Assembly (NCBI GenBank): GCA_049787175.1
Contig: JBAQYT010000135.1
Span: forward strand, 2,548-66,547
DNA length: 64,000 nt
Origin: Candidatus Acidiferrales bacterium
GTDB taxonomy: Bacteria > Acidobacteriota > Terriglobia > Acidiferrales > UBA7541
Direction of reading: 5' to 3'
The position numbers were made by a program, and so were the translations under genes. The stretch's first letter is position 1; the number at the start of each line of letters is the position of its first letter. Positions 1-32,979 of this stretch are shown piece after piece. A model generated the notes under the pieces. That model did no database searches, was not told where the DNA came from, and worked only from the letters and a program-made list of their open reading frames with translations.

Positions 1-1
1 A

Positions 2-16433: not shown

Positions 16434-16459
16434 CAGCGGAACAGCAGCCGCAAATCGCA

Positions 16460-16497: not shown

Positions 16498-16514
16498 ATT
16501 TCCCGGCATCCCCC

Positions 16515-18374
16515 TCAGGAAAATAATTCCAGGATTTCTTCGTAGCGCTTAAACGGCGGAATCAAATAGGCGCCGGGCATTTCCGTTCGCGCCCAATCCA
16601 GCATGCGCCGCGCCAACTGAAATCCGCGATCGCGCGCGGATGCGCCTGCCGATTCCATTTCCTTCAAAGTCGCTTCCGGTATCAGAATTCCGGGTACCTC
16701 GTTGTTCAAACGCAGGGCTTGTTTGTAACTCGTCAGCGGCCACAAGCCAACGAGCACCGGTATCGGCGATTTTCCGCCAATTTTTTTCAGGAACGCGTGC
16801 CAGTGCTCCGGGTCAAAAATCGGCTGGGTCATGGCGAAGTGCGCTCCCGCTTCCACTTTGGCGAAGAACCGCCGGATTTCTTCTTCGATGTCGTCGGCCA
16901 CCGGATTCACAGCGACGCCGATGGTAAAGTTCGTGGCCCCGCCGAGATTTTTTCCGGCCCAATCCGTTCCTTGATTAAGCCGCGCGAGCACTTTGACCAA
17001 GCCAGTCGAATCCACCTCGTAGACGCCGCTCGTTTCCGGATGATCGCCGAGCGAAGGCGGATCGCCGGTGATGGCCAGCACATTGCGGACACCTCCGACG
17101 GACCACGCGCCCAGCAGCATTGCTTGCAGACCAATAATGTTTGCGTCGCGCGTGGTGAGGTGCGGCACGGTTTCAATTCCGTGCGCTTCCAGAGCGCCCG
17201 CCAGAACAAGGGCATCCATGCCAACACGCGCCAGCGTGCCGCTATTGATGTCGATGACGTCCACGTTGCCGGAAGCCGTCACGCGCTTCACCTGTTCGAG
17301 CACGCGATCGATGCTGGTGCCCTTGGGCGGATCGATTTCCACGGACACCGCGAATTTGCCAGCCTGAATTTTCCGCCAGAACTGGCTTTCGGGCTCGCGC
17401 GTTGCCAAGCGCCGCGTTTTTTCGCGAGGCTCGAGAGTTTCTTCCGCGATGCCCGGAGCCGAAACATGCGCGGCACTCGAGGGACGAAGATTCTTGACTG
17501 CCTCCACCATGGCGCGGATGTGCTCCGGCGTGCTTCCGCAGCAGCCGCCGAGGATGCGCACGCCCAGCGCGGCGGCATCGCGCGCGAAATCCGCGAAATA
17601 TTCGGGCGACGATTTGGGATAAACAATGCGGTCGCCGACGCGCTTTGGAAACCCTGCGTTCGGCATGGCGCTCAACGGCAACTTCGAATCGTTGATCGAA
17701 TTGGCAATCTCGCGAAGAATCGGCAGGAGGAGCTGGGGACCGATGGTGCAATTGGCGCCGATGACTTGAACGTTTTTCGGCTTCAGTCTGGCAACGGCAT
17801 CTTCCGGCCGCGTGCCATCAAAGGTGCTGCCTTCTTCCGAATAGGTGAGCTGAGCAACGATCGGCGATTTCGAGAAAGAGCGGATGGCGTCGATGGCGGC
17901 GAGAAGCTCTTCCAGTTCGCCAAAAGTTTCGAGGATAAATAAATCCGCGCCACGCTCTTCGAGGGCCAGAGCCTGCTCGCGGAATATTTCGCGGATTTCG
18001 CCGGGGGGAAGCTCCTTGGCCTGGCGCTGCGTTCCGAGAGGGCCAATCGAACCGGCAATCAGGACTTCGTGGCGCGAGGCCTCGCGAGCTTCACGCGCGA
18101 TTTTCACGCCGCGATGGTTGAGTTCGGCGACGCGATCACCGAGACCAATCGCAGCGAGCTTGCGGCGGTTCGCGCCGAAGGTATTCGTTTCCAGAATTTG
18201 CGCGCCGGCTTCGAGATAGGCCTGATGCACGCGGAAAACGGCTTCGGGCTGCGTGGAATTCAACTCGTCGAGGCAGCGCTGCGGCCCCAAGATTTCGTAG
18301 AGCATCGAGCCCATGGCGCCATCGCCGACAAGAACGGCGTTGCGGAGGCGATCGTTGAATTCTTCAATTTTCAT
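16515..18374 (-). CDS. Bifunctional homocysteine S-methyltransferase / 5,10-methylenetetrahydrofolate reductase (YitJ-type)
   Basis: The N-terminal half matches the Hcy-binding S-methyltransferase domain ('ETNTFGAN', 'GANCT', 'GGCCGSTPEHI'). The C-terminal half matches MetF/MTHFR ('DVIDINSG', 'ETVPHLTTRD', 'NVLAITGDPP'). Confidence 0.9.
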   Translation of the reverse strand: MKIEEFNDRLRNAVLVGDGAMGSMLYEILGPQRCLDELNSTQPEAVFRVHQAYLEAGAQILETNTFGANRRKLAAIGLGDRVAELNHRGVKIAREAREASRHEVLIAGSIGPLGTQRQAKELPPGEIREIFREQALALEERGADLFILETFGELEELLAAIDAIRSFSKSPIVAQLTYSEEGSTFDGTRPEDAVARLKPKNVQVIGANCTIGPQLLLPILREIANSINDSKLPLSAMPNAGFPKRVGDRIVYPKSSPEYFADFARDAAALGVRILGGCCGSTPEHIRAMVEAVKNLRPSSAAHVSAPGIAEETLEPREKTRRLATREPESQFWRKIQAGKFAVSVEIDPPKGTSIDRVLEQVKRVTASGNVDVIDINSGTLARVGMDALVLAGALEAHGIETVPHLTTRDANIIGLQAMLLGAWSVGGVRNVLAITGDPPSLGDHPETSGVYEVDSTGLVKVLARLNQGTDWAGKNLGGATNFTIGVAVNPVADDIEEEIRRFFAKVEAGAHFAMTQPIFDPEHWHAFLKKIGGKSPIPVLVGLWPLTSYKQALRLNNEVPGILIPEATLKEMESAGASARDRGFQLARRMLDWARTEMPGAYLIPPFKRYEEILELFS

Positions 18375-18736
18375 TGTGGGCGATGCTCCGGTTGGGAGCG
18401 GCGATCCTCCTCAAAAAGGGAACGGGCAGTATAGCATTGACGCTCGCGAGAGCGGTGGATGGCGGGGCGAACGGGATATGAAAAATGGGATTTGGGTGTA
18501 ATCGGGACAAGGAAAAAAGCCGCATTTCAGTCCCGATTAGAAAATGTTTTCTCCTTTGTTTTGCGTGAATTAGGAATTGGCGACTTGTGTTCCAGTGTCC
18601 GATTAAAAAAACCATAGATTTGGGTAGAAAAGTTACCTGGGAGGGGGTTTGGAGGACTAGGCAGAGGGGAAGCTCCACCGAGAAATCCTTAAGAGGGCGA
18701 TTGAGATGACGGATTGACGCATCGGAGTCACGACCC

Positions 18737-18765
18737 TATATAGCATGAGTTAACCAGATTGTCAA
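18737..18765 (-). promoter_or_regulatory. Near-consensus sigma-70-type promoter (TTGACA-17 nt-TATATA) about 355 nt upstream of the metF-fusion gene
   Basis: The minus strand reads aggtaTTGACAatctggttaactcatgcTATATAgggtcg. The -35 lies at 18760-18765 and the -10 at 18737-18742, with an exact 17-nt spacer. Such a match is rare in this GC-rich context. Confidence 0.45.
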
Positions 18766-18792
18766 TACCTAAGCGAGAGGGCGACTAGTGGC

Positions 18793-19035
18793 TTACAGTC
18801 TCCTGCCGATTGCGGGTTGGCCTCGGAGAAGGAAGGTCTTCGGATATTTTCCTTCACCGCAGATTTTGAAGGACCCAAAATCTTTGTACCAAGCACCTTC
18901 TGGCGCATCCGGTTCGGATTCGCGCCACAGTTTCAACGCATACAGGTCCTTCACAGAAATCTTGCGGTCTCGAAGCCGTTCAAACAGATGATCGCGCAAG
19001 GCAGGAGGCAAGCCGGTCCACTGAATCTTGAGCAT
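18793..19035 (-). CDS. 80-aa protein of unknown function, downstream partner of the RHH gene (possible toxin-like component)
   Basis: The ATG immediately follows the TAG of the upstream RHH gene (TAGATG). The sequence is 'MLKIQWTGLPPALRDHLFERLRDRKISVKDLYALKLWRESEPDAPEGAWYKDFGSFKICGEGKYPKTFLL...'. I recognise no family. Confidence 0.5.
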   Translation of the reverse strand: MLKIQWTGLPPALRDHLFERLRDRKISVKDLYALKLWRESEPDAPEGAWYKDFGSFKICGEGKYPKTFLLRGQPAIGRRL

Positions 19036-19293
19036 CTATTCGCCGAACGTCATGCGGGCCAGTTTTTCCTTGATGCGTTTCCGCTCGGTGGGGCTCGGGG
19101 AGGAACTCAACCGGTCTGCGAGTTCAAAGAATCTGCTTTTTTCTGCTTCTCGCGATTCGATGCCGCTTTCGATCAGTTCCACCAGGACGTGGTTTGTGCT
19201 GGTGCGCTGATTCTTGGCGAGCGTTCGAACGCGGCGAGCAAGGCGTGGAGGAAGCGACACGCTCTGACGCATGGGTTTTTCAGTAGTTGCCAT
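19036..19293 (-). CDS. Ribbon-helix-helix (CopG/Arc-like) DNA-binding protein, antitoxin-like
   Basis: 'MRQSVSLPPRLARRVRTLAKNQRTSTNHVLVELIESGIE' is a typical RHH beta-strand/helix/helix N-terminus. I chose the start at 19293 ('MATTEKP'). The longer track ORF (to 19497) has no support. Confidence 0.7.
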   Translation of the reverse strand: MATTEKPMRQSVSLPPRLARRVRTLAKNQRTSTNHVLVELIESGIESREAEKSRFFELADRLSSSPSPTERKRIKEKLARMTFGE

Positions 19294-19299
19294 GAAGAA

Positions 19300-19343
19300 A
19301 GTATACACCATAATGCACCATTTCGCACCATGGAGCGTGGTGA
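19300..19343 (-). promoter_or_regulatory. Leaderless-type promoter (-10 TATACT) overlapped by three 10-bp-phased CACCAT repeats plus an inverted copy (putative RHH operator)
   Basis: On the plus strand CACCAT occurs at 19306-11, 19316-21 and 19326-31, with GTGGTG at 19337-42. On the minus strand TATACT (19300-19305) ends 6 nt before the ATG, so the predicted +1 is the A of the ATG. Confidence 0.5.
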
Positions 19344-19520
19344 ACACGTCCATAAAGGAGCCGAGGCAAACTCTGGATGGACACCTGGCGTTCCGCCACA
19401 GGCTGAGCATGTTTCGCAGGAATTGGCTTCGCGGCGCGGCGGTGTGGCAATTTTGAGGCGCGGGCTCGATGTCTTGGTGCAGAATAGGCGCGGGCAAAAA
19501 TTGATGCTAGGGAGGATGGC

Positions 19521-20222
19521 ATGAGAGATCACACGGGGGTTCTTATGCGGGAGAGACGCGTCATTGTTGGAATGATCTTCGGGTTTTTGTTTGGCGCGAT
19601 GGTGATGGTTGCTGGAACAGCATTGGCACAGCATGGAGGGGCGAATGGCGTGGGACAACCCACTGCGGCATCAGCGCCGAGTGCTGCGAATCAGACGGAC
19701 GCGGCGTACGCGTTGCTGACAGAATTTAAGAACGAAGGCGGGCAAATGGGCGGGCAGCGGGGCGCGGGGCCAAGCGACGCGGAGCACGCGTCGCTGGCGA
19801 AACTGGCTGGGGAGTATGACCGGGTCATAAAATTCCTGGGGCAGACGGGGGCGACGGCACAGCCGTCGTCGGGCACATGCACGTTTTCCGTCGAGCTTGG
19901 CGGCAGGTTCGTCGTCGAGAAGAGCCATGATGTGGTGTTTGGGCGGCCGGTGGACGGGCTGCGGATATATGGGTACAACGACGGGACGAAACAGTATGAA
20001 ATGGCGCGGATGTACACGATGTCGAACGGCATCACGTTGATGAAGGGCACGAGCAGCGACGGCGGGAAGACGATTGAGTTTAGCGCGGAGGCAAGCAAGA
20101 TGCCGCTGCGCGCGAGATTTGAGCGCGTGAATGACGATCAGTTCAGTGTGACGATGTCGACGACGGATGCGAATGGGAAGGACATGCCGTTTCAGGAAAC
20201 TGATTACACACGAAAGAAGTAA
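19521..20222 (+). CDS. Secreted protein, DUF1579-like
   Basis: GGAGGA RBS. TM/signal segment 'VIVGMIFGFLFGAMVMVAGTALA'. The C-terminal ~140 aa has the pattern seen in DUF1579 ('...LGGRFVV...FGRPVDGLRIYGYNDGTKQYEM...'). The family assignment is from memory only. Confidence 0.5.
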   Translation: MRDHTGVLMRERRVIVGMIFGFLFGAMVMVAGTALAQHGGANGVGQPTAASAPSAANQTDAAYALLTEFKNEGGQMGGQRGAGPSDAEHASLAKLAGEYDRVIKFLGQTGATAQPSSGTCTFSVELGGRFVVEKSHDVVFGRPVDGLRIYGYNDGTKQYEMARMYTMSNGITLMKGTSSDGGKTIEFSAEASKMPLRARFERVNDDQFSVTMSTTDANGKDMPFQETDYTRKK

Positions 20223-20440
20223 TTTGTGGTGACAGCGGCAAAAACCGCAGAGTTGCGGGCAAACAAGGACCTGCTTTACATAAGTGCAAAAACCGCTGCG
20301 AAATCGTTTGCCCATCGTGCTGGGGGATGGCGGCAATACATCGCGCAGATGAGGCGCGCGAAAGGAAAGAGACTTTCAAATCCAGTTGCTGGCATGGTTG
20401 CGCTTCATTCCTTAGGATAAGAAGTCACGCCCTGACGAAA

Positions 20441-20710
20441 CGACCACGCTGGTCGCATCTTCGCTCGGAATGGCAACGCAACCCCCCCCTTTGCAAAAAG
20501 GGCGAAGGATGGGGCACCCGCGCAAAGCAAATCACTTGCTAGGCGGATGTGCGGCGATGTCGGCCTGAGACCGACGCTACAAGGCAAGGGCGCACAGGCT
20601 AAGAGCCTGTGCCACAGAAGGGGAATGAGACGGGCGACCCGAGGGTCGCCCCTACGAGGCAAAGACCGACCCTTCGCGCCGTTGTTTAGGTGGGGGCGCG
20701 AAGGATGGGG
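20441..20710. repeat. Hairpin-dense intergenic repeat tract (REP/MITE-like)
   Basis: At least seven stem-loops. They are 20441-55 (6 bp), 20487-502 (6 bp, GCAA loop), 20526-40 (5 bp), 20559-75 (5 bp), 20592-612 (9 bp), 20632-51 (8-9 bp) and 20671-704 (10 bp). The 13-nt direct repeat GCGAAGGATGGGG occurs at 20502-14 and 20698-710. Confidence 0.55.
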
Positions 20711-20863
20711 AGGCCGCGAAGACTGAAGCAAAGCAGATCCCTCACACCGTTCGCAGAGATGGCGACCGGATTCCCTTCGCCACGACACTCAGGGCAGGCG
20801 GGATGACAACGTAAAACTGGGCGGATCCAGGCGCGGTCGGTGCGCGGCGGCCAGCGGGGCGAC

Positions 20864-21172
20864 CTACTTCATGAGTTCCTGCAAAAACTGATCGGAGTGC
20901 ATGAACACGGCAAAGTGCCCCCGGTTGATGGTTATAAAGGCCTTGTGGGGCGCCTTGATGGAGGCGAGGTAAAGCAGCGATGCCCGCTGCGCCATTCGCA
21001 TCAGGTCGGAACGACTGACCAAGCCTGGCAAGCCATGGAGAAAGCCAATGAAGCGACCTACGGCAAAGGTAAAACTGCCGCTCACTGATCGACCACAAGA
21101 CAAGAGAGAAAGCAGTCCTACACGCTGTTCAACGGCCCAGTAGAAGTTGCTGGGAGGAAGAATAAACGCCAT
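20864..21172 (-). CDS. Small ORF resembling only the C-terminal end of an alpha/beta-hydrolase (possible gene remnant)
   Basis: The tail '...INRGHFAVFMHSDQFLQELMK' looks like the catalytic-His region and C-terminus of alpha/beta-fold hydrolases, but there is no nucleophile elbow in the 102 aa. It adjoins the repeat tract. Confidence 0.3.
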   Translation of the reverse strand: MAFILPPSNFYWAVEQRVGLLSLLSCGRSVSGSFTFAVGRFIGFLHGLPGLVSRSDLMRMAQRASLLYLASIKAPHKAFITINRGHFAVFMHSDQFLQELMK

Positions 21173-21576
21173 GGTGCGCTAGGACTGGCGGGTGCGTCGA
21201 TTCGTAAGGGATGGACTGTAAAGGATTTAGGCGATTAAGGGAGCGGCAAAATACGTGCAAGAGGGGATTGCGTGAGGGGCGTAAGGGCGCAATCATGCAG
21301 TGCGGCGGAGGTCACCGAACATTCAGCAGAGGCATCAGAGGCAGAATCAGGTTTTCGATATTCCCACAGGCCCGTTTCGGAACAGGTTTGAAAAAAACGA
21401 GCAGAGAAGCATCGGTCGTTGTTCAAGGGCTCGTCCGGGTATTCGGCCGAGCTTTTCCGCTATTCTCCTAGCTTCCTTTGCATCTCGCGCTGGCCGGTTT
21501 GCCAGAGCCCTCCCGGGCGGCGCAAGCATTGCTCCCGTAGCTCCCGAGGAAGATTTATACTTGCAGTTGACCTCGT

Positions 21577-23454
21577 ATGGCCTTGGAAAACGGGGGCCAG
21601 CATATGGATAGCGCCAACCAAAAAGCGAAACAGGCGACGGTGGAGTCTGCGCCTGCTCCCACGCTGCGCGAGCGGCTGAAAGCGCTGCACAACGTGCCTC
21701 CGGTGCTGCACATGATTTGGGAGGCGGCACCGCGCTCGGTTTTCTGCGGAGTGCTGTTTCGCGTGCTGATCGCGGTGATCCCCGCGGCCGTGCTGGTCGT
21801 AACGAAATACATCATTGATGCGCTGGTCCGATACACCAACCACACAGCGACGCTTCCGCATTATTTCTGGTGGCTGGTCGGGGCGGAATTTGCGCTGGCG
21901 TGCCTGGCGATGATTTTTTCGCGCGTCGCGGATTTTTGCGAGACGGTGGTCGCGGATCTATTCACGCGTTATATCGGCAAGCGAATCATGGAGCACGCTT
22001 CGCGATTGGATTTGACATCGTACGAAGATTCGATCGTGTACGACAAGATGGATCGCGCGCGGGTGCAAGGCACGGATCGCGTGGCCATGATTCGGGCGAT
22101 GGGGCAGTTGCTCCAGCAGGTGATTACGACGATTACGCTGGCGATCCAGGTGGCGTTCTATGCGCCGTGGATTTTGGCGATTCTGTTTATCGCGGTGCTG
22201 CCGGCGTTTTTGGGCGAGACGCACTTTTCCTTTTTGGGCTATTCGCTGAATTTCAGCCAGACGCGCGCGCGGCGCGAGATGGATTACTTACGAATCGTCG
22301 GCGGCAGCAAGGAAAGCATCAAGGAACTGAAACTTTTTGGCCTGGGGCCGTTTTTCGTAAACCGCTACACGACGATCACCGATGAGCTCCACGCGCAAAC
22401 GGTGGCGCTGGCGCGGCGCAAACTGATCGCCGGCACGCTCTTGACGGTGCTCGGAACGGTTGGATATTACGGAACGTACGCGTACGTGATCTACGAAACG
22501 GTTTTAGGAGTGTTCAGCATCGGCACGTTGACATTGCTGACCGGCGCGATTGCGGGCGCCAGCACAAACATTCAAGCGGTGTTCACGACGTTCTCCGGAA
22601 TTGCGGATCAAGCGCTGTTCATGACCGACCTGCTGGAATTTTTTGCGGTGCGGCCGATCGTTTTTTCGAAGCCGAACGCGCTGCCAGTGCCGCGCCCGAT
22701 CCGGCAGGGATTCGAGTTCAAGAATGTTTCGTTTTCCTATCCCGGCCATTCACGGGTGGTGCTGGGAAACGTAAGCTTCCGGCTGGAACCGGGCGAACGG
22801 ATCGCGCTGGTCGGAGAAAACGGGCAAGGGAAGACAACCATCGTGAAGCTGCTGGTGCGTTTGTATGACGTGACGTCGGGGCAGATCCTGCTGGATGGAG
22901 TGGACCTCCGCGAATATGACCTTGAGGATGTGTGGAAAGAAGTCGGGGTGATTTTTCAGGATTTCGTGCGCTACGAGATGAGCGCAGCGCATAACATCGC
23001 GATGGGGCGGATCGATGAACGCCAAAACGAGGAGAGTATCCGAGCCGCTGCGGAGAAAAGCCTGGCGGACCAAGTGATTAGCAGGCTTCCGAAAAAATAC
23101 GAACAAATTCTGGGATCGCGGTTCGAAGGCGGCGTGGATCTCTCCGGCGGCGAATGGCAAAAAATGGCGCTCGCGCGCGCCTACCTTCGGGACGCGCAGT
23201 TGCTGATCCTTGATGAGCCTACGGCGTCGCTGGATGCGCGCTCCGAGCATGAAGTGTTTCAGCGTTTCGCGGAGCTGACCGAAGGCAAGATGTCTCTTTT
23301 GATTTCTCACCGTTTTTCCACCGTGCGCATGGCTAATCGCATTTTGGTTCTCGAAAATGGCAGGATCGCCGAGCAGGGCGCCCATGATGAGCTGCTCAAG
23401 AACGGCGGACGGTATGCAGAAATGTTTGAGATGCAAGCGGCAAATTATCGATGA
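21577..23454 (+). CDS. ABC exporter, fused permease-ATPase (MsbA/NdvA(ChvA)-type)
   Basis: Six-TM N-terminal domain, then Walker A 'GENGQGKTT', signature 'LSGGEWQKMALARA' and Walker B 'LLILDEPT'. An alternative start is ATG 21604. Confidence 0.9.
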   Translation: MALENGGQHMDSANQKAKQATVESAPAPTLRERLKALHNVPPVLHMIWEAAPRSVFCGVLFRVLIAVIPAAVLVVTKYIIDALVRYTNHTATLPHYFWWLVGAEFALACLAMIFSRVADFCETVVADLFTRYIGKRIMEHASRLDLTSYEDSIVYDKMDRARVQGTDRVAMIRAMGQLLQQVITTITLAIQVAFYAPWILAILFIAVLPAFLGETHFSFLGYSLNFSQTRARREMDYLRIVGGSKESIKELKLFGLGPFFVNRYTTITDELHAQTVALARRKLIAGTLLTVLGTVGYYGTYAYVIYETVLGVFSIGTLTLLTGAIAGASTNIQAVFTTFSGIADQALFMTDLLEFFAVRPIVFSKPNALPVPRPIRQGFEFKNVSFSYPGHSRVVLGNVSFRLEPGERIALVGENGQGKTTIVKLLVRLYDVTSGQILLDGVDLREYDLEDVWKEVGVIFQDFVRYEMSAAHNIAMGRIDERQNEESIRAAAEKSLADQVISRLPKKYEQILGSRFEGGVDLSGGEWQKMALARAYLRDAQLLILDEPTASLDARSEHEVFQRFAELTEGKMSLLISHRFSTVRMANRILVLENGRIAEQGAHDELLKNGGRYAEMFEMQAANYR

Positions 23455-23490
23455 AACTGCCGTCGATGAAAGCGTGAGGCCTGTTCACAA

Positions 23491-26400
23491 ATGGCGACAC
23501 CGAATCCGTCACTCATAAATACCGGGCCGGACCCTATTGCACCGGCGAACTGCGAGGAAGCTGCTCGTAAGAAAGATGTGGCAAGCGAAAAACGCGCGGC
23601 CACGCTGAGCAAGCTTCGCTCGAGGGCGCTCGAAATTGGCGCGGAGCAGCGCATTTCGGAAGCAAAAGGGAGCGCTCTGCCGCTCGAAGCAAAACTGCAA
23701 GACGCTGCTGACTCCATTGACAAAGCTTTCGAACAACTGCAATTGCTCGCCAGCGCCGGAACGCGGTTGTTCGGCGTGCAGCGGCAGCTCTTTGAGAGTG
23801 CAGACATTGTGCGGATGGCGCTGCAAAATGCGCGAGGCAGCTTGAAGAAAGCAGAACTCGTTCCGCAAGTTGCCACGGCGGACGGCGAGACTGTGCCGCG
23901 CGCCTATGCGGCGATCGAGAAGTTCTTCGAAGCGATCGATTATGATTTCGATTCGGAGAAGTTCTCGGTTTTCTTCCGGGCGTTCCAGGAAAAGGATCCG
24001 CTGCGATTTGCCGAGGACTGGCTTCTGATTGCCTTTGCCCAACTGCTGCTCCTCGATCGCATCCGCCGCACGATCGAGCGGCTGCCGTTGCCGACGAATG
24101 GTTCGAATGCGGCCCATGCACCTGAGACAGAAAACAGCGTTTTGATGGGGACGCTGATCACGAGTCTGCGCCGGATCAGCGAGTTCGAGCCGGAGGAAAT
24201 TATCGGCGCGGTCAGCGAAATCGACAGAGTGTTGAGGGCGGATCCTGCAAAAGCGTACGCCCGGATGGATTTTGAAAGCCGCGAGGCGTATTGCCGGGCG
24301 GTCGCGGAATTGGCCGCGCAATCTCCCGCGAGTGAGCGCGAAGTGGCGGAAAAGGCGGTCGAGCTTGCCGGCGCGCCGCCGGCGGCCGCGACAAGAAGAG
24401 GCGTGGAACGAAGATCGCACGTGGGATTTTACGTGATCCGCGAAGGACGGAAGATTCTCGGCGAGGCCATCGGGTATCGCGCGGCGTGGCACACACGCCT
24501 GCGTACAGGCCTGCTGCGGTCCGCCGATTTGATTTATCTGATGGGAATTGAACTCGCAACGATGGGTGTGATTGCGTTAGCGCTTGTAGCGGCTCACGGC
24601 AGATTGCCGGGTTCCGTGGAACTGCTGCTATTCCTGCTGCCGGCGCTGGAATGCGCTGTGGCGACAGTAAACATTCTGTCGACGCAGTTCGTTTCTCCGA
24701 GGGCGCTGCCGAAGATGGATTTTTCCAAGGGCATTGCGGAAGAGTGCGCCACAGTGGTTGCGATTCCGACGCTGCTGATCAGCGAGGAACAGACCCGGAA
24801 GATGGTGAATGATCTAGAAGTGCGTTACTTAGCGAATCGCGATCGAAATCTTTACTTTGCGTTGATCACCGACCCGCCGGATTCCGTGAAGCAATTCGAT
24901 GAGAAGGATCAGTTAGCGCCGTTGTGCGCGGGGTTGGTCAAGAAGCTGAATGAGAAATATGCGGAGGAAGGCCGAGATTCGTTTTTTCATTTTCATCGGA
25001 ACCGCGTCTACAACGCGACGGAAAAAATGTGGATGGGGTGGGAAAGGAAGCGCGGCAAACTTCTGGACTTCAATCGGCTGTTGCTGGGACAGGAAAACAG
25101 CTTCACGCTGAAGACGGGCGATCTTTCCGTTCCGTCGAAAATCAAGTACGTGATCACACTCGACGCGGACACGCAATTGCCGCGCGATTCGGCGCGCAAG
25201 CTGGTTGGCGCGCTGGCGCATCCGTTGAACCGCGCGGTCATCGATCCGGCGACGAACAAAGTGGTGGAGGGCTACGGCATTCTGCAGCCGAGAGTGGAAA
25301 TCAGCATCCACTCGGCGGCGCGCTCGCGGCTGGCAGCAATTTTTTCAGGGGACACGGGATTCGATATCTATGCCAGAGCCGTTTCCGACGTCTATCAGGA
25401 TCTTTTTGGGGAAGGGATTTTCACCGGCAAAGGCATATACGAAGTGGAGATATTTCAGCAGGCGCTGGAGCATCGATTCCCGATCAATTCGCTGCTGAGC
25501 CACGATCTGATTGAAGGGGCGTACGCGCGGGCGGGTTTGCTCTCCGATGTTGAAGTTGTGGATGATTACCCATCGCACTTCAGCGCTTACAGCCGGCGCA
25601 AGCATCGCTGGGTGCGCGGCGACTGGCAAATTATTTTGTGGCTGTTGCCGCGCGTGCCGGACTATTTCGGCAAGATCGTGCGCAATCCGCTGAGCCTGCT
25701 GTCGCGGTGGGAAATCATCGATAACCTTCGGCGGAGCGTCACAGAATTCGCGACATTCGTTCTGCTGCTCGGAATCTGGTTATTTTTCCCCGGAAATATC
25801 GTGTATTGGACGCTTGCCGCTTTGGCGGTGATCGCGTTCCCCACGTATTTTCAGTTTTTTGTTTCGATTGCGCGGGGCGGCGCGGCGCGGTTCACGACGG
25901 CGTTTTGGGCGAACTTCGCCGCGGATTTTGCCAGTGCGAATGAGCGGCTCTTTTTCCGCATAACGTTCCTGTGTCATCAAGGGTTTGTCACCATGGATGC
26001 GGTGGTGCGGACAGTGATACGCGTGGCGATCACGCGCCGGCGGATGCTGGAGTGGGAAACGGCCGCCGAAGTGGAGATCGCCGCGAATAAGAAGAAATCG
26101 CCGGTAGAAACTTATCTGGAGTGGATGCCGCTGCTTTCTTTTGGCATCGCGGTGGTCATCGCGGCGTTCCGGCCCACATCTCTTCTGATTGCGCTGCCGT
26201 TTCTGGCGCTGTGGGCGTCATCGAAACCCATTTGCCATTGGTTGAATCGGCCGGGCCGCTCCGGAGTGACGCCGCTCGGGGCGAAGGATCGCGTCCTGCT
26301 GCGCGGCGCTGCGCTGCGAACGTGGCGTTTTTTCCGCCAGTACAGCACCGCGGAGGAGAATTGGCTGATCCCGGACATTGTGCAAGAGGCCGCGCCGTTC

Positions 26401-28242
26401 GCGGCCCATCAGATATCCACGACCAATCTGGGATTCCTGTTGAATGCCAGGCTGGCGGCGTACGACCTGGGCTTTGTAACTTTGCGCGAGTTCATAACCA
26501 CCACGCAAAAAACATTCGAAACAATGGGGCGCATGGCGAAATCCAACGGGCATTTGTACAACTGGTATAACACGCGGACGCTCGAGCCCTTAACGCCGCG
26601 ATTCATTTCGACGGTGGACAACGGGAACTTGGTTTGCTGCCTTTGGACGCTAAAGCATGGCTGCCTGGAGGCGAGAGAGGCCCCTATTTTTCAGGAAGCT
26701 CTATGGCGAGGACTCGAAGACCATCTTGACTTGGCCGCGGAATTTCTTCCCAAGGAGCGGAAGAATGAACGAATCGCGGCGCGCATCGAGGAAATGAAGC
26801 TGAGGACCCGCTCAAAGGCGAGCGGCGACGCAACGTGGCTGGAGGTGGTTCGCGGGCTGGAAGTGGATGTGGCGATGCTCGAAATGGAGCTATCCGAGGC
26901 GGGAGTCGGCGAGGAAGGCCGGTGGTGGGTGCACGAGCTGTCTTTGCGGCTGCATCATCTGGGAAAAATGGTGCAGGACTTTACGCCGTGGCTTTTGCCG
27001 GAAGTCGCCAAGTATTTGCGGGCTTTCGAAATTCCCCACGATGCGTCGATCAGCGGCCTCACGCTGCAGTCGGCATTGAGAGCAAACGCTGCTCTGCAAG
27101 AGCGACTGAAGGAATTTTTGGCGCAGCCGGAACTCGACGCCGAGACGCGCATGATGGCGGAGTCGGTTGGGACCCGGCTGGCAAGCGCGGAAGAGATTTG
27201 CCGGGAGGTCAGCGAGAGCCTGGAGAGCATCGCGGCGGTTGCGGAAGAGTTGGCGAAAGGAATGGATTTTGGCTTTTTCTACAATAAGCGCAAGAAAGCG
27301 ATGTCCATCGGCTATGACGTGGAGCATGGCTGCTTGATGGATTATTACTATGACGTATTTGCGTCGGAGGCGCGCGCGGCGGTATTCGTAGCCGTGGCGA
27401 AGGGCGAAATTCCGCAGGAGACGTGGCTCCATCTCCGACGGCCGCATGCGCTGTACAAACGGACTCGCGTGATTCTTTCTTGGACCGGAACGATGTTCGA
27501 ATATCTGCTGCCGGCGTTGTGGATGAGGAGCTATCCCAACACAATTTTTGAGCGGAGCGGTCAGGGCGCAGTGCGGGCGCAGCAAAATTTCACGCGCAAG
27601 ACGTCGGTGCCGTGGGGCATATCGGAGAGCTCGTGCATCGATAAGAATCCAGATGGCTTCTATCGTTATCACGCGTTTGGAGTGCCAGGGCTGGCGATGA
27701 ACCAGGCGAGCTCGCCGGATCTGGTAATATCGCCGTATTCCACATTCCTTGGCTTGCTGGTGGACGCGGCGGGCGCGGCGAAAAATCTGCAACGGATGAA
27801 AGAAATGGGCTGGCTGGGTGCGTATGGATTTTTCGAATCGGCAGACTTTACAACTTCGCGCGTGGGCGAAGGGGAACAGTATGAGCTGGTGCACTGCTGG
27901 ATGGCGCATCACCAAGGGATGAGCTTGGTAGCCGTGGTGAATGTGCTGTGCGACGCGCCGATGCAAAGGCGTTTCCACGCAGAACCGCTGGTGGAGGCTA
28001 CGGAGCGGCTGCTGCACGAAAAATTCCCGCGAATGTGGAAGCTCGAGAAAGTTGACAAGGCGGTAGTCGACGCCCACGCGTTATTGAGCATCGAGCAGAA
28101 GCAGCGGCTCGCGGAGTCTTCGTCGCTGCACGGGCACGTGAGCGTACCAGGCGCGGAGGGTGCGGAACCTGCGCGGGCGCCCGTTGCGGCAGCCAGTTCG
28201 ACGGCGAAGCTTGCCGCCGACCACCATCGCAGCGATACGTAA
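23491..28242 (+). CDS. Cyclic beta-1,2-glucan synthase-like protein: GT84 glycosyltransferase domain plus (alpha/alpha)6 'cyclization'-type domain, without the GH94 phosphorylase domain
   Basis: 'ITLDADTQLPRDSARKLVGALAHPLNRAVID', 'GYGILQPRV', 'HDLIEGAYARAGLLSDVEVVDDYP' and 'RRKHRWVRGDWQI' match the Cgs/NdvB/ChvB GT84 core. 'NGHLYNWYNTRTLEPLTPRFISTVDNGNL' and 'WMAHHQGMSL' match the region downstream of it. The ORF ends at 1583 aa, whereas Cgs proteins are about 2800 aa. Confidence 0.8.
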   Translation: MATPNPSLINTGPDPIAPANCEEAARKKDVASEKRAATLSKLRSRALEIGAEQRISEAKGSALPLEAKLQDAADSIDKAFEQLQLLASAGTRLFGVQRQLFESADIVRMALQNARGSLKKAELVPQVATADGETVPRAYAAIEKFFEAIDYDFDSEKFSVFFRAFQEKDPLRFAEDWLLIAFAQLLLLDRIRRTIERLPLPTNGSNAAHAPETENSVLMGTLITSLRRISEFEPEEIIGAVSEIDRVLRADPAKAYARMDFESREAYCRAVAELAAQSPASEREVAEKAVELAGAPPAAATRRGVERRSHVGFYVIREGRKILGEAIGYRAAWHTRLRTGLLRSADLIYLMGIELATMGVIALALVAAHGRLPGSVELLLFLLPALECAVATVNILSTQFVSPRALPKMDFSKGIAEECATVVAIPTLLISEEQTRKMVNDLEVRYLANRDRNLYFALITDPPDSVKQFDEKDQLAPLCAGLVKKLNEKYAEEGRDSFFHFHRNRVYNATEKMWMGWERKRGKLLDFNRLLLGQENSFTLKTGDLSVPSKIKYVITLDADTQLPRDSARKLVGALAHPLNRAVIDPATNKVVEGYGILQPRVEISIHSAARSRLAAIFSGDTGFDIYARAVSDVYQDLFGEGIFTGKGIYEVEIFQQALEHRFPINSLLSHDLIEGAYARAGLLSDVEVVDDYPSHFSAYSRRKHRWVRGDWQIILWLLPRVPDYFGKIVRNPLSLLSRWEIIDNLRRSVTEFATFVLLLGIWLFFPGNIVYWTLAALAVIAFPTYFQFFVSIARGGAARFTTAFWANFAADFASANERLFFRITFLCHQGFVTMDAVVRTVIRVAITRRRMLEWETAAEVEIAANKKKSPVETYLEWMPLLSFGIAVVIAAFRPTSLLIALPFLALWASSKPICHWLNRPGRSGVTPLGAKDRVLLRGAALRTWRFFRQYSTAEENWLIPDIVQEAAPFAAHQISTTNLGFLLNARLAAYDLGFVTLREFITTTQKTFETMGRMAKSNGHLYNWYNTRTLEPLTPRFISTVDNGNLVCCLWTLKHGCLEAREAPIFQEALWRGLEDHLDLAAEFLPKERKNERIAARIEEMKLRTRSKASGDATWLEVVRGLEVDVAMLEMELSEAGVGEEGRWWVHELSLRLHHLGKMVQDFTPWLLPEVAKYLRAFEIPHDASISGLTLQSALRANAALQERLKEFLAQPELDAETRMMAESVGTRLASAEEICREVSESLESIAAVAEELAKGMDFGFFYNKRKKAMSIGYDVEHGCLMDYYYDVFASEARAAVFVAVAKGEIPQETWLHLRRPHALYKRTRVILSWTGTMFEYLLPALWMRSYPNTIFERSGQGAVRAQQNFTRKTSVPWGISESSCIDKNPDGFYRYHAFGVPGLAMNQASSPDLVISPYSTFLGLLVDAAGAAKNLQRMKEMGWLGAYGFFESADFTTSRVGEGEQYELVHCWMAHHQGMSLVAVVNVLCDAPMQRRFHAEPLVEATERLLHEKFPRMWKLEKVDKAVVDAHALLSIEQKQRLAESSSLHGHVSVPGAEGAEPARAPVAAASSTAKLAADHHRSDT

Positions 28243-28279
28243 TCGGAAGTGATTGAGTTTTTTATTCCGCTGAGTGAGA

Positions 28280-28354
28280 TGGTAGCGATACCGGGACTCG
28301 AACCCGGATTTGAGCCTTGAGAGGGCTCCGTCCTAACCTTTAGACGATATCGCC
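28280..28354 (-). tRNA. tRNA-Glu (anticodon CUC), CCA encoded
   Basis: The reverse complement reads GGCGATA TC GTCT AAAGGTTA GGAC G GAGCC CTCTCAA GGCTC AAAT CCGGG TTCGAGT CCCGG TATCGCT A CCA. It has a 7-bp acceptor (one G-U), 4-bp D, 5-bp anticodon and 5-bp T stems, and a TTCGAGT T-loop. Confidence 0.9.
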
Positions 28355-28660
28355 ACAGGGTTGAAGCGGAACATTGGCCGTTTGCGGCCCGTTCAAACTT
28401 CGATTTTCGCACGGCTGATAATTGCCCGCAAGTAGCCGCTGATCGCATCAGAGAGGCGCGAGGCCGTGAGTCGCGACGGGCGCAGCAGGCAGCGCCCTGC
28501 GATGGATGTCGGCGCAACGGGCTCAGAGCGCTCCCTTTCTTCGCAGACACACATAAACAAGCAGTGCCTCCACGAACAGCGGACGCTCTGGGCTAATCTC
28601 AAAAACAAGTTCTAATGGGCCGAAACGCGGGTATGATTCCGTGCGCGGAGGACCACTCGA

Positions 28661-29950
28661 ATGATTTCTCGCCGAAGATTTTTTCAGCTTGCAGGGCTTG
28701 CAGCGGGCGCGCCGCTTGCGTCTCGTCTGGCGTTGGCGCAAGACGCGCCGGGATGCGGAAATTTGCCGCCGGCCATCGGGCAATTGAAGTCGATGCGCGA
28801 CCAGGCTCAGCCGATTACCGTGGCCGAACGGCAAGAGCGCGTGGAGCGCGCGCGCCGCTTGATGCAGGAAAATCACATCGACGCCATCATGCTGATTGGC
28901 GGCACGTCGATGAAGTATTTTGCGAACATCGACTGGTGGCTCAGCGAGCGGACATTCACGCTCATTATTCCGGCGAAAGGAGAGCCATTTTTCGTTTGCC
29001 CGGGATTTGAGGAGGGCCGCGCACGGGAGCAAATCAATCGCGGGCCGTTCGCAGGGAATCCGGATATTCGTATCTGGCAGGAGAACGAGAGTCCGTACCA
29101 GCGCGCGGCGCAGGGACTGAAGGACCGCGGAATCGCGAACGGGCGGATGGGGATTGAGGAAACGGTGTGGTTCGTGAAAAGCGATGGTGTGGCTCATGCG
29201 ACGCCAGGGCTGACGTTTACAAGCGCAACGCCGGTGACCGCGGGATGCCGCATGCATAAGACGCAGCACGAAATAGCGCTGCTGCAGCTTGCGAATACGG
29301 TCACAATAAAGGCTTATGAAGCGGCGTGGCGGTCGCTGCAAGCAGGAATGACGCAGCAGGATTTCGCGCGAATGGTCTCCGAGGCACACGCACAATTGGG
29401 TTTCCAAGGCGATGCAGGAGTGCAAGTGGGGGAGTATTCCGCGCTGCCGCATGGCTCGATTGAGCCGCAGAAAGTGGAAGAGGGAACGATTCTGCTGATC
29501 GACGGGGGCTGCACCGTGGAAGGCTATCATTCGGATATCAGCCGCACGTTCGTTCTGGGCACGCCCACGGACAAAATGAACAAAGTGTTCGACATTGTTC
29601 ACCGAGCGCAAGCTGCGGCGCTTGCTCAGGCGCGGCCGGGCGTGGAGGCGCAGTCGGTCGACGCCGCCGCGCGCAAAGTGATCGAGGACGCGGGCTACGG
29701 TCCCGGATACAAATATTTGGGGCACCGGCTCGGCCACGGAATCGGGATGGATGACCACGAGTGGTGTTATCTGGTTGGCGGCGATACGATCAAGCTTGAG
29801 CCACGCATGAGCTTCAGCGATGAACCGGGCATTTACATCCGAGGCGAATTTGGCGTCCGGCTTGAGGATTGCATGCATATTACCGAGGACGGCGCGAAGC
29901 TCTTCACGGGGCAGAGCGCGTCGCTTGAGCATCCATTCGATACGGCGTAG
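28661..29950 (+). CDS. M24-family metallopeptidase (Xaa-Pro aminopeptidase/prolidase-like) with twin-arginine signal
   Basis: Tat motif 'SRRRFFQLAGLAAGAPLASRLALA'. M24 metal-ligand regions 'LIDGGCTVEGYHSDISRT', 'GHRLGHGIGMDDHE' and 'FSDEPGIY...VRLED'. GGAGGA RBS. Confidence 0.85.
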   Translation: MISRRRFFQLAGLAAGAPLASRLALAQDAPGCGNLPPAIGQLKSMRDQAQPITVAERQERVERARRLMQENHIDAIMLIGGTSMKYFANIDWWLSERTFTLIIPAKGEPFFVCPGFEEGRAREQINRGPFAGNPDIRIWQENESPYQRAAQGLKDRGIANGRMGIEETVWFVKSDGVAHATPGLTFTSATPVTAGCRMHKTQHEIALLQLANTVTIKAYEAAWRSLQAGMTQQDFARMVSEAHAQLGFQGDAGVQVGEYSALPHGSIEPQKVEEGTILLIDGGCTVEGYHSDISRTFVLGTPTDKMNKVFDIVHRAQAAALAQARPGVEAQSVDAAARKVIEDAGYGPGYKYLGHRLGHGIGMDDHEWCYLVGGDTIKLEPRMSFSDEPGIYIRGEFGVRLEDCMHITEDGAKLFTGQSASLEHPFDTA

Positions 29951-30054
29951 AGGATATTTCGGCCTCGGAAACTCGACGGCAAGCACCCGCGGCAAGCGCT
30001 TTCCTCTGTGGTAGCTTTAGAGAGGGTCTCCTGAACTCTCTACAGAGGGGCGTT

Positions 30055-30912
30055 ATGGATTCGCGGAGCAATCGCCGCAGCGATCGCATTTCCATCTCGT
30101 TCACGCTCGAAACACTGGGCATGAACGCCGAAAACCGGCCTTTCCTGGAAACCGCAAGGACGGTGGTCGTAAATCGTCACGGCGCACTGGTTTCGCTCAG
30201 TCACAAACTTCGTGTGGGGCAAACGGTCACCGTGCGGCGCCGTGTGGTTGACGGGTCGATTCGACAAGCGGAGGTGCGCGTCGTCGCGTGTGAGAAAGAG
30301 ACGGCGAATGGCGGAGAGTATGGAGTGTCATTCGTCGATCCGAATCTGGATTTTTGGGGGATCGAATTTCCATCGCCGGAAAGGGCAATCGATGCGGTCG
30401 TACGGCTCCTGGTGGAATGCTCGCATTGCAAGTGCCAAGAATTGGCCTATCTTGATTCGCGCGAGCTGAAGGAATTCGAGGCGAATCACCTCTTCGCACG
30501 GCAGTGCCGCATGTGCGAATCTCCGACGATCTGGAAACAGCCACTGGAATCGATGTCTCGCGCGGGCACGGGGGATTCGCATCGCGAAGGCACGGGATCA
30601 GGGGCCGCGAGCGCGTCGCCCGAACGGGAAACGACACGTTATGAGACGCGTCTCACCGCGTGCGTTCGGGAAAAGCCCGGCACGGAAGAAATGGCCGTGT
30701 GTGAAAATGTTTCGCGTCAAGGAGTTGCTTTTCGCACAAAGAACCGATATCAGGAAGGGTCGCAGGTGGAAGTGGCCGTGCCGTACACGCCGGGAATGGC
30801 TAACGTTTTTGTTCCGGCAATTGTGATTCACGTGCGGGCATTGCCGGCGGCGGGCCTGTACCGGCATGGCGCAAGATATTTGCGAAAGGACGGCTCAGAA
30901 CTCACCGCTTAG
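30055..30912 (+). CDS. PilZ-domain protein (degenerate N-terminal PilZ-like domain, Cys4 knuckle, canonical C-terminal PilZ)
   Basis: C-terminal 'RYETR' (RxxxR) and 'ENVSRQG' (NxSxxG). The N-terminus has 'RRSDR' but only 'VNRHGALV' in place of DxSxxG. The central region 'CSHCKC...CRMC' is zinc-ribbon-like. Confidence 0.65.
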   Translation: MDSRSNRRSDRISISFTLETLGMNAENRPFLETARTVVVNRHGALVSLSHKLRVGQTVTVRRRVVDGSIRQAEVRVVACEKETANGGEYGVSFVDPNLDFWGIEFPSPERAIDAVVRLLVECSHCKCQELAYLDSRELKEFEANHLFARQCRMCESPTIWKQPLESMSRAGTGDSHREGTGSGAASASPERETTRYETRLTACVREKPGTEEMAVCENVSRQGVAFRTKNRYQEGSQVEVAVPYTPGMANVFVPAIVIHVRALPAAGLYRHGARYLRKDGSELTA

Positions 30913-31401
30913 AGCAGAGGCATGCTCGGCGGTTGGATGCAAATTGTAGCGCATGCTGATATTCAAGAAAACGCGGCCGCAGGCGGTGTCAAAATAAATC
31001 GCGGTCTCTTCCGTTTCTGCCTTGCTATCGGAGTTTTCCTGATGCACAGGCGTTTCTGGCGGAAATACTTTGAACTGATAGCCGTGATCGTTGAGCAAAG
31101 TGACCGCATTTCCGATCATCATGTTCGCCAGCTCAAAGACCGTTTCACCGATCACTTGATCCGATTGTTGGACTTCTTCCCCCGCGAGAACGCATGCGAC
31201 GCGTACGGCGGTATCGGAAGTCATGTCGACAATGATGCGGCCTTCGATTTCTCCGTGGATGGCTATCCGCGCCGCGCAGCCCTTTGGCCGATAATCCTCC
31301 TGCTCCATGGTCAGGCCGCCGATCTTGGCGGGCTCATGAAGGACGCTTGCCAGCACACAATCCGCCGCGCTGATGAAAGGCTGAATCAGTTCCATCTTCA
31401 T
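30895..31401 (-). CDS. cheX: CheX/CheC-family chemotaxis phosphatase
   Basis: 168 aa with 'ETVFELANMMIGNAVTLL', the E-x2-N motif of the CheC/CheX/FliY family. The start overlaps the cheY stop (ATGA). The 3' end overlaps the convergent PilZ gene by 18 nt. Confidence 0.65.
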   Translation of the reverse strand: MKMELIQPFISAADCVLASVLHEPAKIGGLTMEQEDYRPKGCAARIAIHGEIEGRIIVDMTSDTAVRVACVLAGEEVQQSDQVIGETVFELANMMIGNAVTLLNDHGYQFKVFPPETPVHQENSDSKAETEETAIYFDTACGRVFLNISMRYNLHPTAEHASALSGEF

Positions 31402-31844
31402 GAGCGTGTTTCTCCCACGGTTGCATGCGCGTGCGCGTCTTCATCCGTCAACACGTAGCGGATGATTTCGTAGAGCACATCGGGTTTCACGGGTTTTTGC
31501 ACAAAGTGGCGCGCGCCTTTCTGGAGCGCGGCCAGAATGTTGTCCTGATAACCGACGGACGAAACCATCACGATGCGCGCATCGGGATGCTGCCGCACGA
31601 TACGTTCGACGGCTTCGATGCCCTCCATTTGCGGCATGGTGATATCCATCAGCACAATATCGGGCTTGGTGCGCGCGTATTCGGTGATGGCTGTGCAGCC
31701 GTCGCCGGCTTCGCCGACGACTTCACCTCCGAACGAGTTAATCATCTTCGCCAGGTTCTTGCGCGCGAAGACCGAGTCGTCAACGACGAGATAACGAACC
31801 GGCTGGCTATCCTGCTTTCGCGTCAATGGCGTAAATGGTTTCAT
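31398..31844 (-). CDS. cheY: CheY-like single-domain response regulator
   Basis: 'YLVVDDSVFARK', 'IVLMDITMPQMEG', 'IVMVSSVG' and 'HFVQKPV' supply all the phospho-acceptor pocket residues. I chose ATG 31844; the longer track ORF overlaps cheB. Confidence 0.85.
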   Translation of the reverse strand: MKPFTPLTRKQDSQPVRYLVVDDSVFARKNLAKMINSFGGEVVGEAGDGCTAITEYARTKPDIVLMDITMPQMEGIEAVERIVRQHPDARIVMVSSVGYQDNILAALQKGARHFVQKPVKPDVLYEIIRYVLTDEDAHAHATVGETRS

Positions 31845-31878
31845 GAGCGTCTCCTCGAACGATGTTGCCGTCTTTCCA

Positions 31879-32979
31879 TCATTGTATTTGCAGAGCCGGC
31901 CCTTTTTGCTGGCCTGATTCGGAAGACTGGCCGGCGCATTGGGCGTAAAGAAAATTGGGAAGAGTCTCGAGATCCAGCACGCGATTGACATGGCCACGCT
32001 CGATGGCGCTGCGCGGCATGCTGTCCACCACACAGGAAGTGGAATTTTGAGCAAGCGCGAGCCCGCCTGCGTCCTTCACCAAACGAATGGCATCCGCGCC
32101 ATCGTCTCCCATGCCCGTCATCAGAAGCGCGATGGCCCGCGCGCCAAACTCTTTGGCTACGGAGCGAAACAAAACATCCGCGGATGGGCGGTGGCCGTTC
32201 ACGCGTGGCGATTCCGAGACAACGGCGATATGCCCCTGCGGCGTACGACGCACCAGAAGATGCCGGTTGCCGGGACAGATGAGAGCTTGCCCGGCGATGA
32301 GCTGGTCGCCGGAACATGCTTCGCGCACTTGAATCGGGGAGTTTTCGTCCAAACGCTTTGCCAGCATTTCCGTGAAGCCCTCCGGCATGTGCTGCGCGAT
32401 CAGGAAACAGCCGCCAAAATCAGCGGGCATTTGCGAAAGCATGTACTCGAGCGCATGTGGCCCACCCGTGGAGATTCCCACTGCCACGACACGCGTCGGC
32501 GGATGATGGTGCTGCCCTTTGGGAAGGCGCGCCTTTAGCCGCGCCGCAGGAATTTCCGCGATCATTTTAGGGATGCCGGAAATTGCCGCTGCTTTGATCT
32601 TCATCGCGAGTTCCCGAGCGATTCCTTGCAGCGTGCCAGAGGCGGCATTCGAGGGCTTGGTCACGAAGTCAAATGCGCCCAAGGCCAACGCTTTCAGGGT
32701 CTCACGCGCGCCTTCGCGGGAATGCGCGCTGAAAAGAATCACAGGAACGCGAAACCGCCGAGTAATCTCGTGCATCATTTCGATTCCGTTCATGCGCGGC
32801 ATCTCGAGATCGAGAGTCACCACGTGCGGCTTCAGCTCCTCAATTTTTTTTAGCCCAAATGATCCGTCCATCGCCGTGCCGACAACTTTGATGGTTCCGT
32901 CCTTCTCCAAGATTTGCGGAATGAGTTTGCGCATCAGCGCGGAATCGTCAACGACGAGCACGCGCACCGGTTCGCTCAT
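31879..32979 (-). CDS. cheB: Protein-glutamate methylesterase/deamidase CheB (REC + CheB_methylest)
   Basis: REC domain 'VLVVDDSALMRK...TLDLEMPRMNG'. Catalytic domain 'VAVGISTGGPHAL', 'QHMPEGFT', 'HRPSADVLF' and 'LLMTGMGDDGA'. Confidence 0.92.
   Translation of the reverse strand: MSEPVRVLVVDDSALMRKLIPQILEKDGTIKVVGTAMDGSFGLKKIEELKPHVVTLDLEMPRMNGIEMMHEITRRFRVPVILFSAHSREGARETLKALALGAFDFVTKPSNAASGTLQGIARELAMKIKAAAISGIPKMIAEIPAARLKARLPKGQHHHPPTRVVAVGISTGGPHALEYMLSQMPADFGGCFLIAQHMPEGFTEMLAKRLDENSPIQVREACSGDQLIAGQALICPGNRHLLVRRTPQGHIAVVSESPRVNGHRPSADVLFRSVAKEFGARAIALLMTGMGDDGADAIRLVKDAGGLALAQNSTSCVVDSMPRSAIERGHVNRVLDLETLPNFLYAQCAGQSSESGQQKGPALQIQ

Follow-up and report, generated by a model that had tools for sequence, protein, structure and literature searches.

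Cyclic beta-1,2-glucans are known as envelope and host-interaction factors and as useful hosts in inclusion chemistry. Recent reviews describe the cyclic glucan synthase (CGS; Cgs, NdvB or ChvB) as a three-region enzyme, and canonical representatives devote their C-terminal ~1300 residues to a GP1-RFL-GP2-GP3 part with a GH94 phosphorylase. In the enzyme from Agrobacterium tumefaciens (Atu Cgs), roles have been assigned to D624, D626 and D739 of the glycosyltransferase (GT) domain, to the primer tyrosine Y694 and to D1104, E1300 and E1386 of the cyclisation (CY) domain, which spans residues 979-1535 and is followed from residue 1536 by the GH94 part (PMC10901819). In the CY domain of Thermoanaerobacter italicus CGS (TiCGS-Cy), the founding member of family GH189, E1356 acts as the acid/base and E1442 as the nucleophile, with E1400 and H1536/H1537 in supporting roles (PMC10834661). 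Here we describe a natural Cgs variant devoid of the GH94 part, encoded in a 64,000-nucleotide stretch (hereafter the window) of contig JBAQYT010000135.1 from a 'Candidatus Acidiferrales' bacterium (Acidobacteriota). Its gene stands directly behind a gene for an ATP-binding cassette (ABC) exporter, and we consider it likely that the two together make, cyclise and export beta-1,2-glucan without phosphorolytic length control.

The synthase open reading frame (ORF) occupies positions 23491-28242 (+ strand, as are all its parts listed below) and encodes 1583 residues. Pfam returns a weak GT2 match (residues 553-764) and the PF10091 'glucoamylase' domain (residues 1286-1497), and proteins of this kind are entered in databases under the names 'glucoamylase family protein' or 'cyclic beta-1,2-glucan synthetase'. 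The structures of Atu Cgs (PDB 8rf0/8rf9) match the synthase with an E-value of 1.3e-227, residues 211-1094 aligning with Cgs 277-1159 and residues 1241-1515 with Cgs 1248-1522 (8rf0 numbering), and the T. italicus CY domain (PDB 8wy1) aligns with it residue by residue (E ~1e-105). An earlier note on this DNA, made from the letters alone, had claimed that the protein carries the GT84 motifs of Cgs followed by an (alpha/alpha)6 cyclisation region. A domain-resolved alignment to the Agrobacterium enzyme bears out both points: it extends from the N-terminal domain (NTD) to the end of the cyclase, the C-terminal half of the synthase is homologous to the cyclisation region, and every functional residue known from Atu Cgs and TiCGS-Cy occurs in the synthase.

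Homology of the cytoplasmic NTD (residues 1-344; 23491-24522) to that of Cgs sets in near residue 211, and the part in front of this point is divergent. It is followed by the hydrophobic helices TM1-TM2 (residues 345-398; 24523-24684), which were recognised in a hydropathy scan and align to the transmembrane (TM) region of Atu Cgs, and by the GT84 domain (residues 400-747; 24688-25732), delimited by alignment to the same protein. The latter contains the whole trio of catalytic aspartates, D558/D560 (nt 25162-25170; Atu D624/D626) and D672 (nt 25504-25506; Atu D739), together with the HRWxRGDWQ motif in the form H705-RWVRGDWQ-713 (nt 25603-25629; QHRWARGDWQ in Atu Cgs). The putative site of autoglucosylation is Y627 (nt 25369-25371), aligned with the primer tyrosine Y694. 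Hydropathy, long helices in an AlphaFold2 (AF2) model and the Atu Cgs alignment agree on TM3-TM6 (residues 749-908; 25735-26214), and the hydrophobic segments at residues 345-398, 749-794 and 875-908 match the six helices of canonical Cgs.

The GH189 cyclisation (transglycosylase) domain (residues 940-1515; 26308-28035) has the (alpha/alpha)6 barrel fold and the helical insert specific to GH189. Its acid/base E1293 (nt 27367-27369) corresponds to Atu E1300 and T. italicus E1356, its nucleophile E1379 (nt 27625-27627) to Atu E1386 and T. italicus E1442, D1043 to Atu D1104, E1337 to T. italicus E1400, and H1473/H1474 to T. italicus H1536/H1537. The AF2 model of residues 400-1583 (pTM 0.76) reaches pLDDT values of ~80-95 in this domain, with low confidence in the last ~68 residues; its GH189 domain superposes on 8wy1 with a TMt of 0.90, and the model as a whole on the Atu Cgs structures 8rfe/8rf9/8rf0 with a TMq of 0.72-0.74 over ~1160 columns at 31-32% identity. 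Since every tested feature of Cgs is present except the GH94 region of ~1300 residues, the most fitting name for the protein is GT84-GH189 synthase; it is a Cgs variant and not a canonical member.

The claim of the earlier note that the protein terminates where GH94 would begin also stood up. Homology to Cgs ceases at residues 1515-1520 and the GH94 part of Atu Cgs starts at 1536, so the synthase ends at the CY/GH94 border, save for a non-conserved, low-complexity tail (residues 1516-1583 with the stop codon; 28036-28242; pLDDT <50). One might suspect a Cgs gene that was cut short, is decaying or was assembled wrongly and that lies beside an unrelated MsbA-type lipid exporter, and some short metagenome proteins placed among long forms do look contig-cut. 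The layout behind the gene argues otherwise. No GH94 sequence runs on in any frame past the synthase stop, and a tRNA-Glu(CTC) gene (28280-28354, - strand; found by ARAGORN and as Rfam RF00005 with 63.9 bits), which marks the boundary and is not part of the system, lies 37 nt past the stop on the opposite strand. It is followed by genes for an M24 peptidase and a PilZ protein and by a chemotaxis cluster, so that a frameshift with GH94 continuing behind it, which the earlier note had dismissed for the sake of the tRNA, does not apply. A scan of the window's large ORFs turned up neither a GH94 gene nor a second gene with PF10091, and tblastn with GH144 and GH39 queries gave none either.

The wider distribution of the short form speaks against an artefact as well. 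The nearest database protein, 98% identical, belongs to a metagenome-assembled genome (MAG) of 'Candidatus Acidiferrales' and places the window in the Terriglobia. A homologue search with the synthase gave more than 120 clusters at 49-98% identity with lengths of 1490-1615 residues, two fragments of 1153 and 1305 residues excepted. HMMER applied to 1.84 billion representatives found 4200 relatives at E<=1e-30; in the best 150 of these the lengths are bimodal (~1445-1670 and 2720-3050 residues), and the proteins of intermediate length look like contig-cut fragments. A neighbour-joining (NJ) tree was inferred from the shared core of representatives at 50% identity, including 24 short sequences (23 database representatives and the window protein). 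The 24 short proteins (1380-1580 residues) form an exclusive clade with no long or intermediate member in 65 of 65 NJ bootstraps. Catalytic and primer residues are invariant throughout this clade, and the GT84 residues are so in 57 long proteins too, apart from a single glycine at the position of D560.

A genome scan with one genome per species yielded 80 loci, each viewed with ±10 kb of context, which split into 39 short and 41 long forms. The ORF of every short form stops 0-69 residues (median 23) past the cyclase domain, and none of these 39 loci has GH94 in the ±10 kb around it; every long form continues for ~1300 further residues homologous to GH94. Short forms are those of Terriglobia and are hosted by Acidoferrales, Acidobacteriaceae, Korobacteraceae, Bryobacteraceae, Silvibacterium and Terracidiphilus, including the cultured Paludibaculum fermentans (Bryobacteraceae), and long forms by Blastocatellia/Pyrinomonadaceae, Proteobacteria, Chloroflexota, Verrucomicrobiota, Bacteroidota, Clostridium and others. 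The short architecture, which recurs in 39 genomes and in hundreds of clusters with identities of 37-98%, is a conserved, clade-wide form and not a product of truncation. With the exclusive clade, the uniform architecture in the genomes and the sequence of stop codon, tRNA and peptidase gene taken together, truncation or frameshift is effectively refuted.

A few sequences deserve separate mention. In a contig-cut locus from Vicinamibacterales (L070) the upstream gene encodes the same exporter, and this locus probably falls into the short class. Two short-form loci come from MAGs labelled Acetobacteraceae (L023, with the exporter) and Solirubrobacteraceae (L031, its upstream DNA outside the view), and their proteins cluster with those of Acidobacteriaceae, which points to mis-binned contigs or horizontal transfer. 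Among the metagenome representatives, short proteins also turn up here and there between long forms, and most of these are probably contig-cut fragments. Four metagenome representatives of ~1500-1640 residues that the tree places among long-form Cgs (P0155, P0158, P0193 and P0246) could be such fragments or could represent a second, independent loss of GH94. As for the clade itself, its position nested among long forms in the NJ topology, the root of which is not set, suggests that GH94 was lost, and the short form might instead be the ancestral state that preceded the fusion with GH94.

The gene in front of the synthase (21577-23454, + strand) encodes a 625-residue ABC half-transporter with a transmembrane domain (TMD) at residues ~40-370 and an ATPase or nucleotide-binding domain (NBD) at residues 396-550 corresponding to PF00005. 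It ends 36 nt upstream of the synthase, in agreement with the earlier note, and a consensus scan of the spacer (23455-23490, + strand) shows no terminator- or promoter-like site; the promoter and terminator scans gave nothing above the shuffled expectation, and Rfam found no regulatory RNA in the window, only the tRNA. The two genes likely constitute an operon. An orthologue of the exporter (54-76% identity) lies directly upstream in all 34 short-form loci with visible upstream DNA, at a median spacing of 21 nt (35 loci), but is absent from all 33 long-form loci whose upstream DNA can be seen (Fisher p 7e-20); any ABC ATPase match within 10 kb was seen in one long-form locus only. The exporter is more strongly conserved than the synthase, which is 40-53% identical to its relatives, and in the loci L001 and L003 in particular the identity amounts to 67-70% for the exporter versus 51-52% for the synthase. 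The exporter is a dedicated partner of the short synthase.

The affiliation of this exporter is less straightforward than the earlier note's 'MsbA/NdvA-type' implied. Pfam recognises ABC_tran (PF00005) with an E-value of 6.6e-32 and ABC_membrane with merely 26.8 bits. Proteins of known structure that match residues 54-621 (E 1e-60 to 1e-104) are ABCB1, ABCB4 and MsbA, and the Walker A/B and signature motifs are visible as GENGQGKTT, LSGGEWQ and ILDEPT, as expected of the type IV (ABCB-like) fold of a TMD-NBD half-transporter. The best NCBIfam model is MsbA (TIGR02203), which covers the full length and scores 277.5 bits against a cut-off of 602, and a second MsbA model (NF008381) reaches 233.6 bits against 867, so the protein falls outside the MsbA equivalogs. 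The NdvA/ChvA models NF010178 and TIGR01192 score 228.7 against 733 bits and 176.8 against 585 bits, respectively, and cover residues 352-620, that is the NBD, only. The transmembrane half on its own has no significant match in the PDB (E 0.087 to MsbA). Orthology to NdvA was rejected on these grounds: the models hit only the NBD and far below their cut-offs, and the TMD lacks a PDB match. Of the earlier description, the NdvA part holds only generically, for the ATPase domain. Judged from its sequence, the exporter is an MsbA/ABCB-like half-transporter with a divergent TMD outside any named family.

With NdvA, ChvA and Cgt the exporter shares the build of a homodimeric-type half-transporter, the genetic linkage to a glucan synthase and the presumed export of a cytoplasmic glucan; it differs from them in that only its ATPase domain aligns. 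It is a functional analogue of NdvA/Cgt and not an orthologue, with a substrate read from the gene linkage. The exporter data also bear on the notion of a broken Cgs gene next to a lipid exporter. No named family scores higher with the ABC protein than MsbA, which would fit that notion, but the score lies far below the MsbA cut-off and, where upstream DNA is visible, the linkage is universal among the short forms and absent from the long ones; we regard the notion as a whole as extremely improbable.

We infer the following course of events. The synthase would glucosylate its own Tyr627 and the GT84 domain would then extend a beta-1,2 chain from UDP-glucose, a step proposed because D558, D560, D672, the HRW motif and the primer tyrosine are all conserved. 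The GH189 domain, with E1379 as nucleophile and E1293 as acid/base, would release the chain by retaining transglycosylation and, given a long chain, close a ring of at least ~17 glucoses. For comparison, the excised GH189 domain of TiCGS needs no other part of the enzyme to cyclise linear beta-1,2-glucan, and the smallest ring that it makes has a degree of polymerisation (DP) of 17 (PMC10834661). With no GH94 present, the ring size would be set solely by the preference of the cyclase, and because phosphorolytic trimming is missing the rings are expected to be larger and more heterogeneous, with a broader range of sizes, than the DP 17-24 of Brucella. The co-transcribed MsbA/ABCB-like exporter would carry the product to the periplasm, where it probably serves as a glucan for envelope or osmotic homeostasis in these soil Terriglobia.

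An engineered parallel exists in Brucella abortus, whose Cgs without the phosphorylase domain produces cyclic glucans of higher DP that are poorly exported by Cgt (PMC11071196). We speculate that this poor export of large rings may be the rationale for a different exporter in the present system.

Support for the nature and location of the product comes from the neighbourhood of related loci. A PF10091 protein of 471-476 residues is encoded within 10 kb of 17 of the 39 short-form and 2 of the 41 long-form loci (p 4.5e-5), for example in L001 (16326-17741, - strand) and L003 (14692-16116, - strand), in addition to 15 other short-form loci. It matches the GH144 endo-beta-1,2-glucanases XCC2207 (PDB 8xul, E 7e-72) and CpSGL (PDB 5gzh) and bears a twin-arginine (Tat) signal peptide. 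Such a neighbour is independent support for beta-1,2 linkages in the product and for its arrival in the periplasm, and in many relatives the Tat-exported GH144 enzyme encoded nearby may trim or recycle the glucan there. In 13 short-form loci in all, a gene for a conserved protein of ~333 residues accompanies the GH144 gene (in L003 at 16246-17244, + strand); this companion is membrane-anchored by one N-terminal hydrophobic helix and has no match in Pfam or NCBIfam.

The enrichment of a periplasmic glucanase beside short-form loci could also be read in favour of a linear product. The short synthase might free linear beta-1,2-glucan or oligosaccharides, its GH189 domain using water or a further chain as the acceptor, and GH144 might then process the product in the periplasm much as in the OpgH/OpgG system. 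TiCGS-Cy indeed makes linear transglycosylation products from short substrates, the cyclic or linear outcome depending on chain length, but the same study found that it transglycosylates exclusively, without hydrolysis, and favours long chains (PMC10834661). Moreover, the residue constellation of the cyclising enzyme (E1293, E1337, E1379 and the histidine pair) is invariant, and the engineered Brucella truncation still yields cyclic glucan (PMC11071196). We therefore regard a linear product as unlikely. The system of Escherichia coli itself, OpgH with OpgG/OpgD, resembles the present one in combining a synthase at the cytoplasmic face with a beta-1,2-glucanase by which the product is shaped in the periplasm. 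The protein families (GT2 for OpgH, GH186 for the glucanases) are unrelated to the short synthase and GH144, and OpgH moves its own product, whereas the short system would employ an ABC exporter instead.

Another way to keep the chemistry canonical would be length control in trans, with chains trimmed by a separate GH94 1,2-beta-oligoglucan phosphorylase whose gene lies in another part of the genome, and products like those of canonical Cgs. Stand-alone GH94 enzymes of this kind (SOGP) occur in bacteria (PMC3960220), and our view extends over the window and ±10 kb around the loci of relatives, all of which is free of GH94 as reported above. In Cgs the growing chain is held covalently, and GH94 and the cyclase together make up a fixed surface for glucan binding (PMC10901819); because of this enzyme-bound chain and fixed surface, a free GH94 enzyme is unlikely to reproduce the arrangement. 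On balance, we deem control in trans quite improbable, somewhat more so than a linear product.

Several points weigh against the preferred reading, that of cyclic glucan made and exported without phosphorolytic control. Truncations of the GH94 region of Atu Cgs did not restore growth in a hypo-osmotic assay, and a scaffolding role of this region was proposed (PMC10901819). If GH94 has such a role, an insertion elsewhere might make up for its loss, but no obvious one was found: the helical insert in the CY domain (D1043 to M1258) is of equal length in the two forms (215 residues in the synthase; median 211 in the short clade and 223 in the long forms), and the stretch of NTD in front of TM1 is ~90 residues shorter in the short clade (median 305 versus 398 residues). 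Activity of the clade members is predicted by homology, the glucan as substrate of the exporter is deduced from gene linkage only, and the AF2 model has low confidence in parts of the GT domain. The window itself contains no GH144 gene detectable by tblastn with GH144 and GH39 queries, and the absence of GH94 applies to this 64-kb window and to ±10 kb around the loci of relatives.

A bolder version of the preferred reading, which we put forward tentatively and hold to be rather doubtful, is that size control has been moved out of the synthase in Terriglobia: the enzyme would make large rings of broad size range, a co-evolved exporter with a novel TMD would pass rings that Cgt and NdvA cannot, and GH144 would trim them where present. 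If this were true, the scaffolding role of GH94 would not be intrinsic to the mechanism of Cgs.

Placed among the described systems, the short synthase has in common with canonical Cgs/NdvB/ChvB the NTD, six TM helices, the GT84 D,D,D and HRWxRGDWQ signatures, the primer tyrosine and a GH189 domain with both glutamates. It departs from them in the missing C-terminal part, the shorter NTD and the non-NdvA exporter gene that precedes it. In domain content it equals the engineered GH94-less Cgs constructs of Brucella and Agrobacterium, which are laboratory-made, whereas the natural clade has persisted without GH94 and with a different exporter. The catalytic residues correspond to those of the T. 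italicus GH189 domain, although TiCGS itself is a full-length three-region enzyme of which only the excised domain has been studied. A full-text search of the literature, incomplete in coverage and so no more than absence of evidence, found nothing on a natural GH94-less Cgs, its exporter or beta-1,2-glucan synthesis in Acidobacteriota. The earlier note's statement that such enzymes are uncharacterised holds for the natural proteins and not for engineered GH94 truncations (PMC11071196, PMC10901819). What is new here is the natural GH94-less synthase as a conserved two-gene module with a linked exporter.

What determines ring size, and what the GH94 half is needed for besides trimming, is debated, and the truncation results from Brucella and Agrobacterium disagree. 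A clade that does without GH94 and is always coupled to a different exporter amounts to a natural experiment on the role of this region. The short module also offers a smaller, two-gene system for expression, structural work and the production of larger rings, and it extends the biology of beta-1,2-glucans to the abundant soil Acidobacteriota.

The rest of the window holds genes of other kinds. Two genes past the synthase, just before the chemotaxis cluster, a stand-alone protein with two PilZ-domain matches is encoded (30055-30912, + strand). A link of this protein to glucan synthesis was considered and rejected, the gene order being kept in the 90%-identical locus L005 and not in L001 or L003; the PilZ protein is probably unrelated to glucan synthesis. 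The adjoining chemotaxis-type cluster (31398-38539) includes CheB, with CheA, CheR, CheW and a methyl-accepting chemotaxis protein (MCP) presumed from synteny with L005. A second such cluster (46010-52547) comprises an MCP, CheR, a 999-residue CheA-CheW-receiver hybrid and CheB, and between the two lie a PAS/GAF histidine kinase and a sigma-54 response regulator.

Upstream, positions 1-16433 harbour a cluster of the exopolysaccharide/O-antigen type, with a Wzy_C polymerase/ligase, a GT4 glycosyltransferase, two NAD epimerase/dehydratases, a UDP-GlcNAc 2-epimerase, an initiating sugar transferase and an arylsulfotransferase-family protein. Because its GC content (48-53%) is lower than that of the remaining window (57-60%), this region may be a horizontally acquired island. 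Next to it, a 619-residue ORF on the - strand (16515-18374) fuses homocysteine S-methyltransferase and methylenetetrahydrofolate reductase domains. Strong positive GC skew (+0.12 to +0.25 in 2-kb windows) characterises positions 18001-30000 and 58001-64000, where the genes lie on the + strand.

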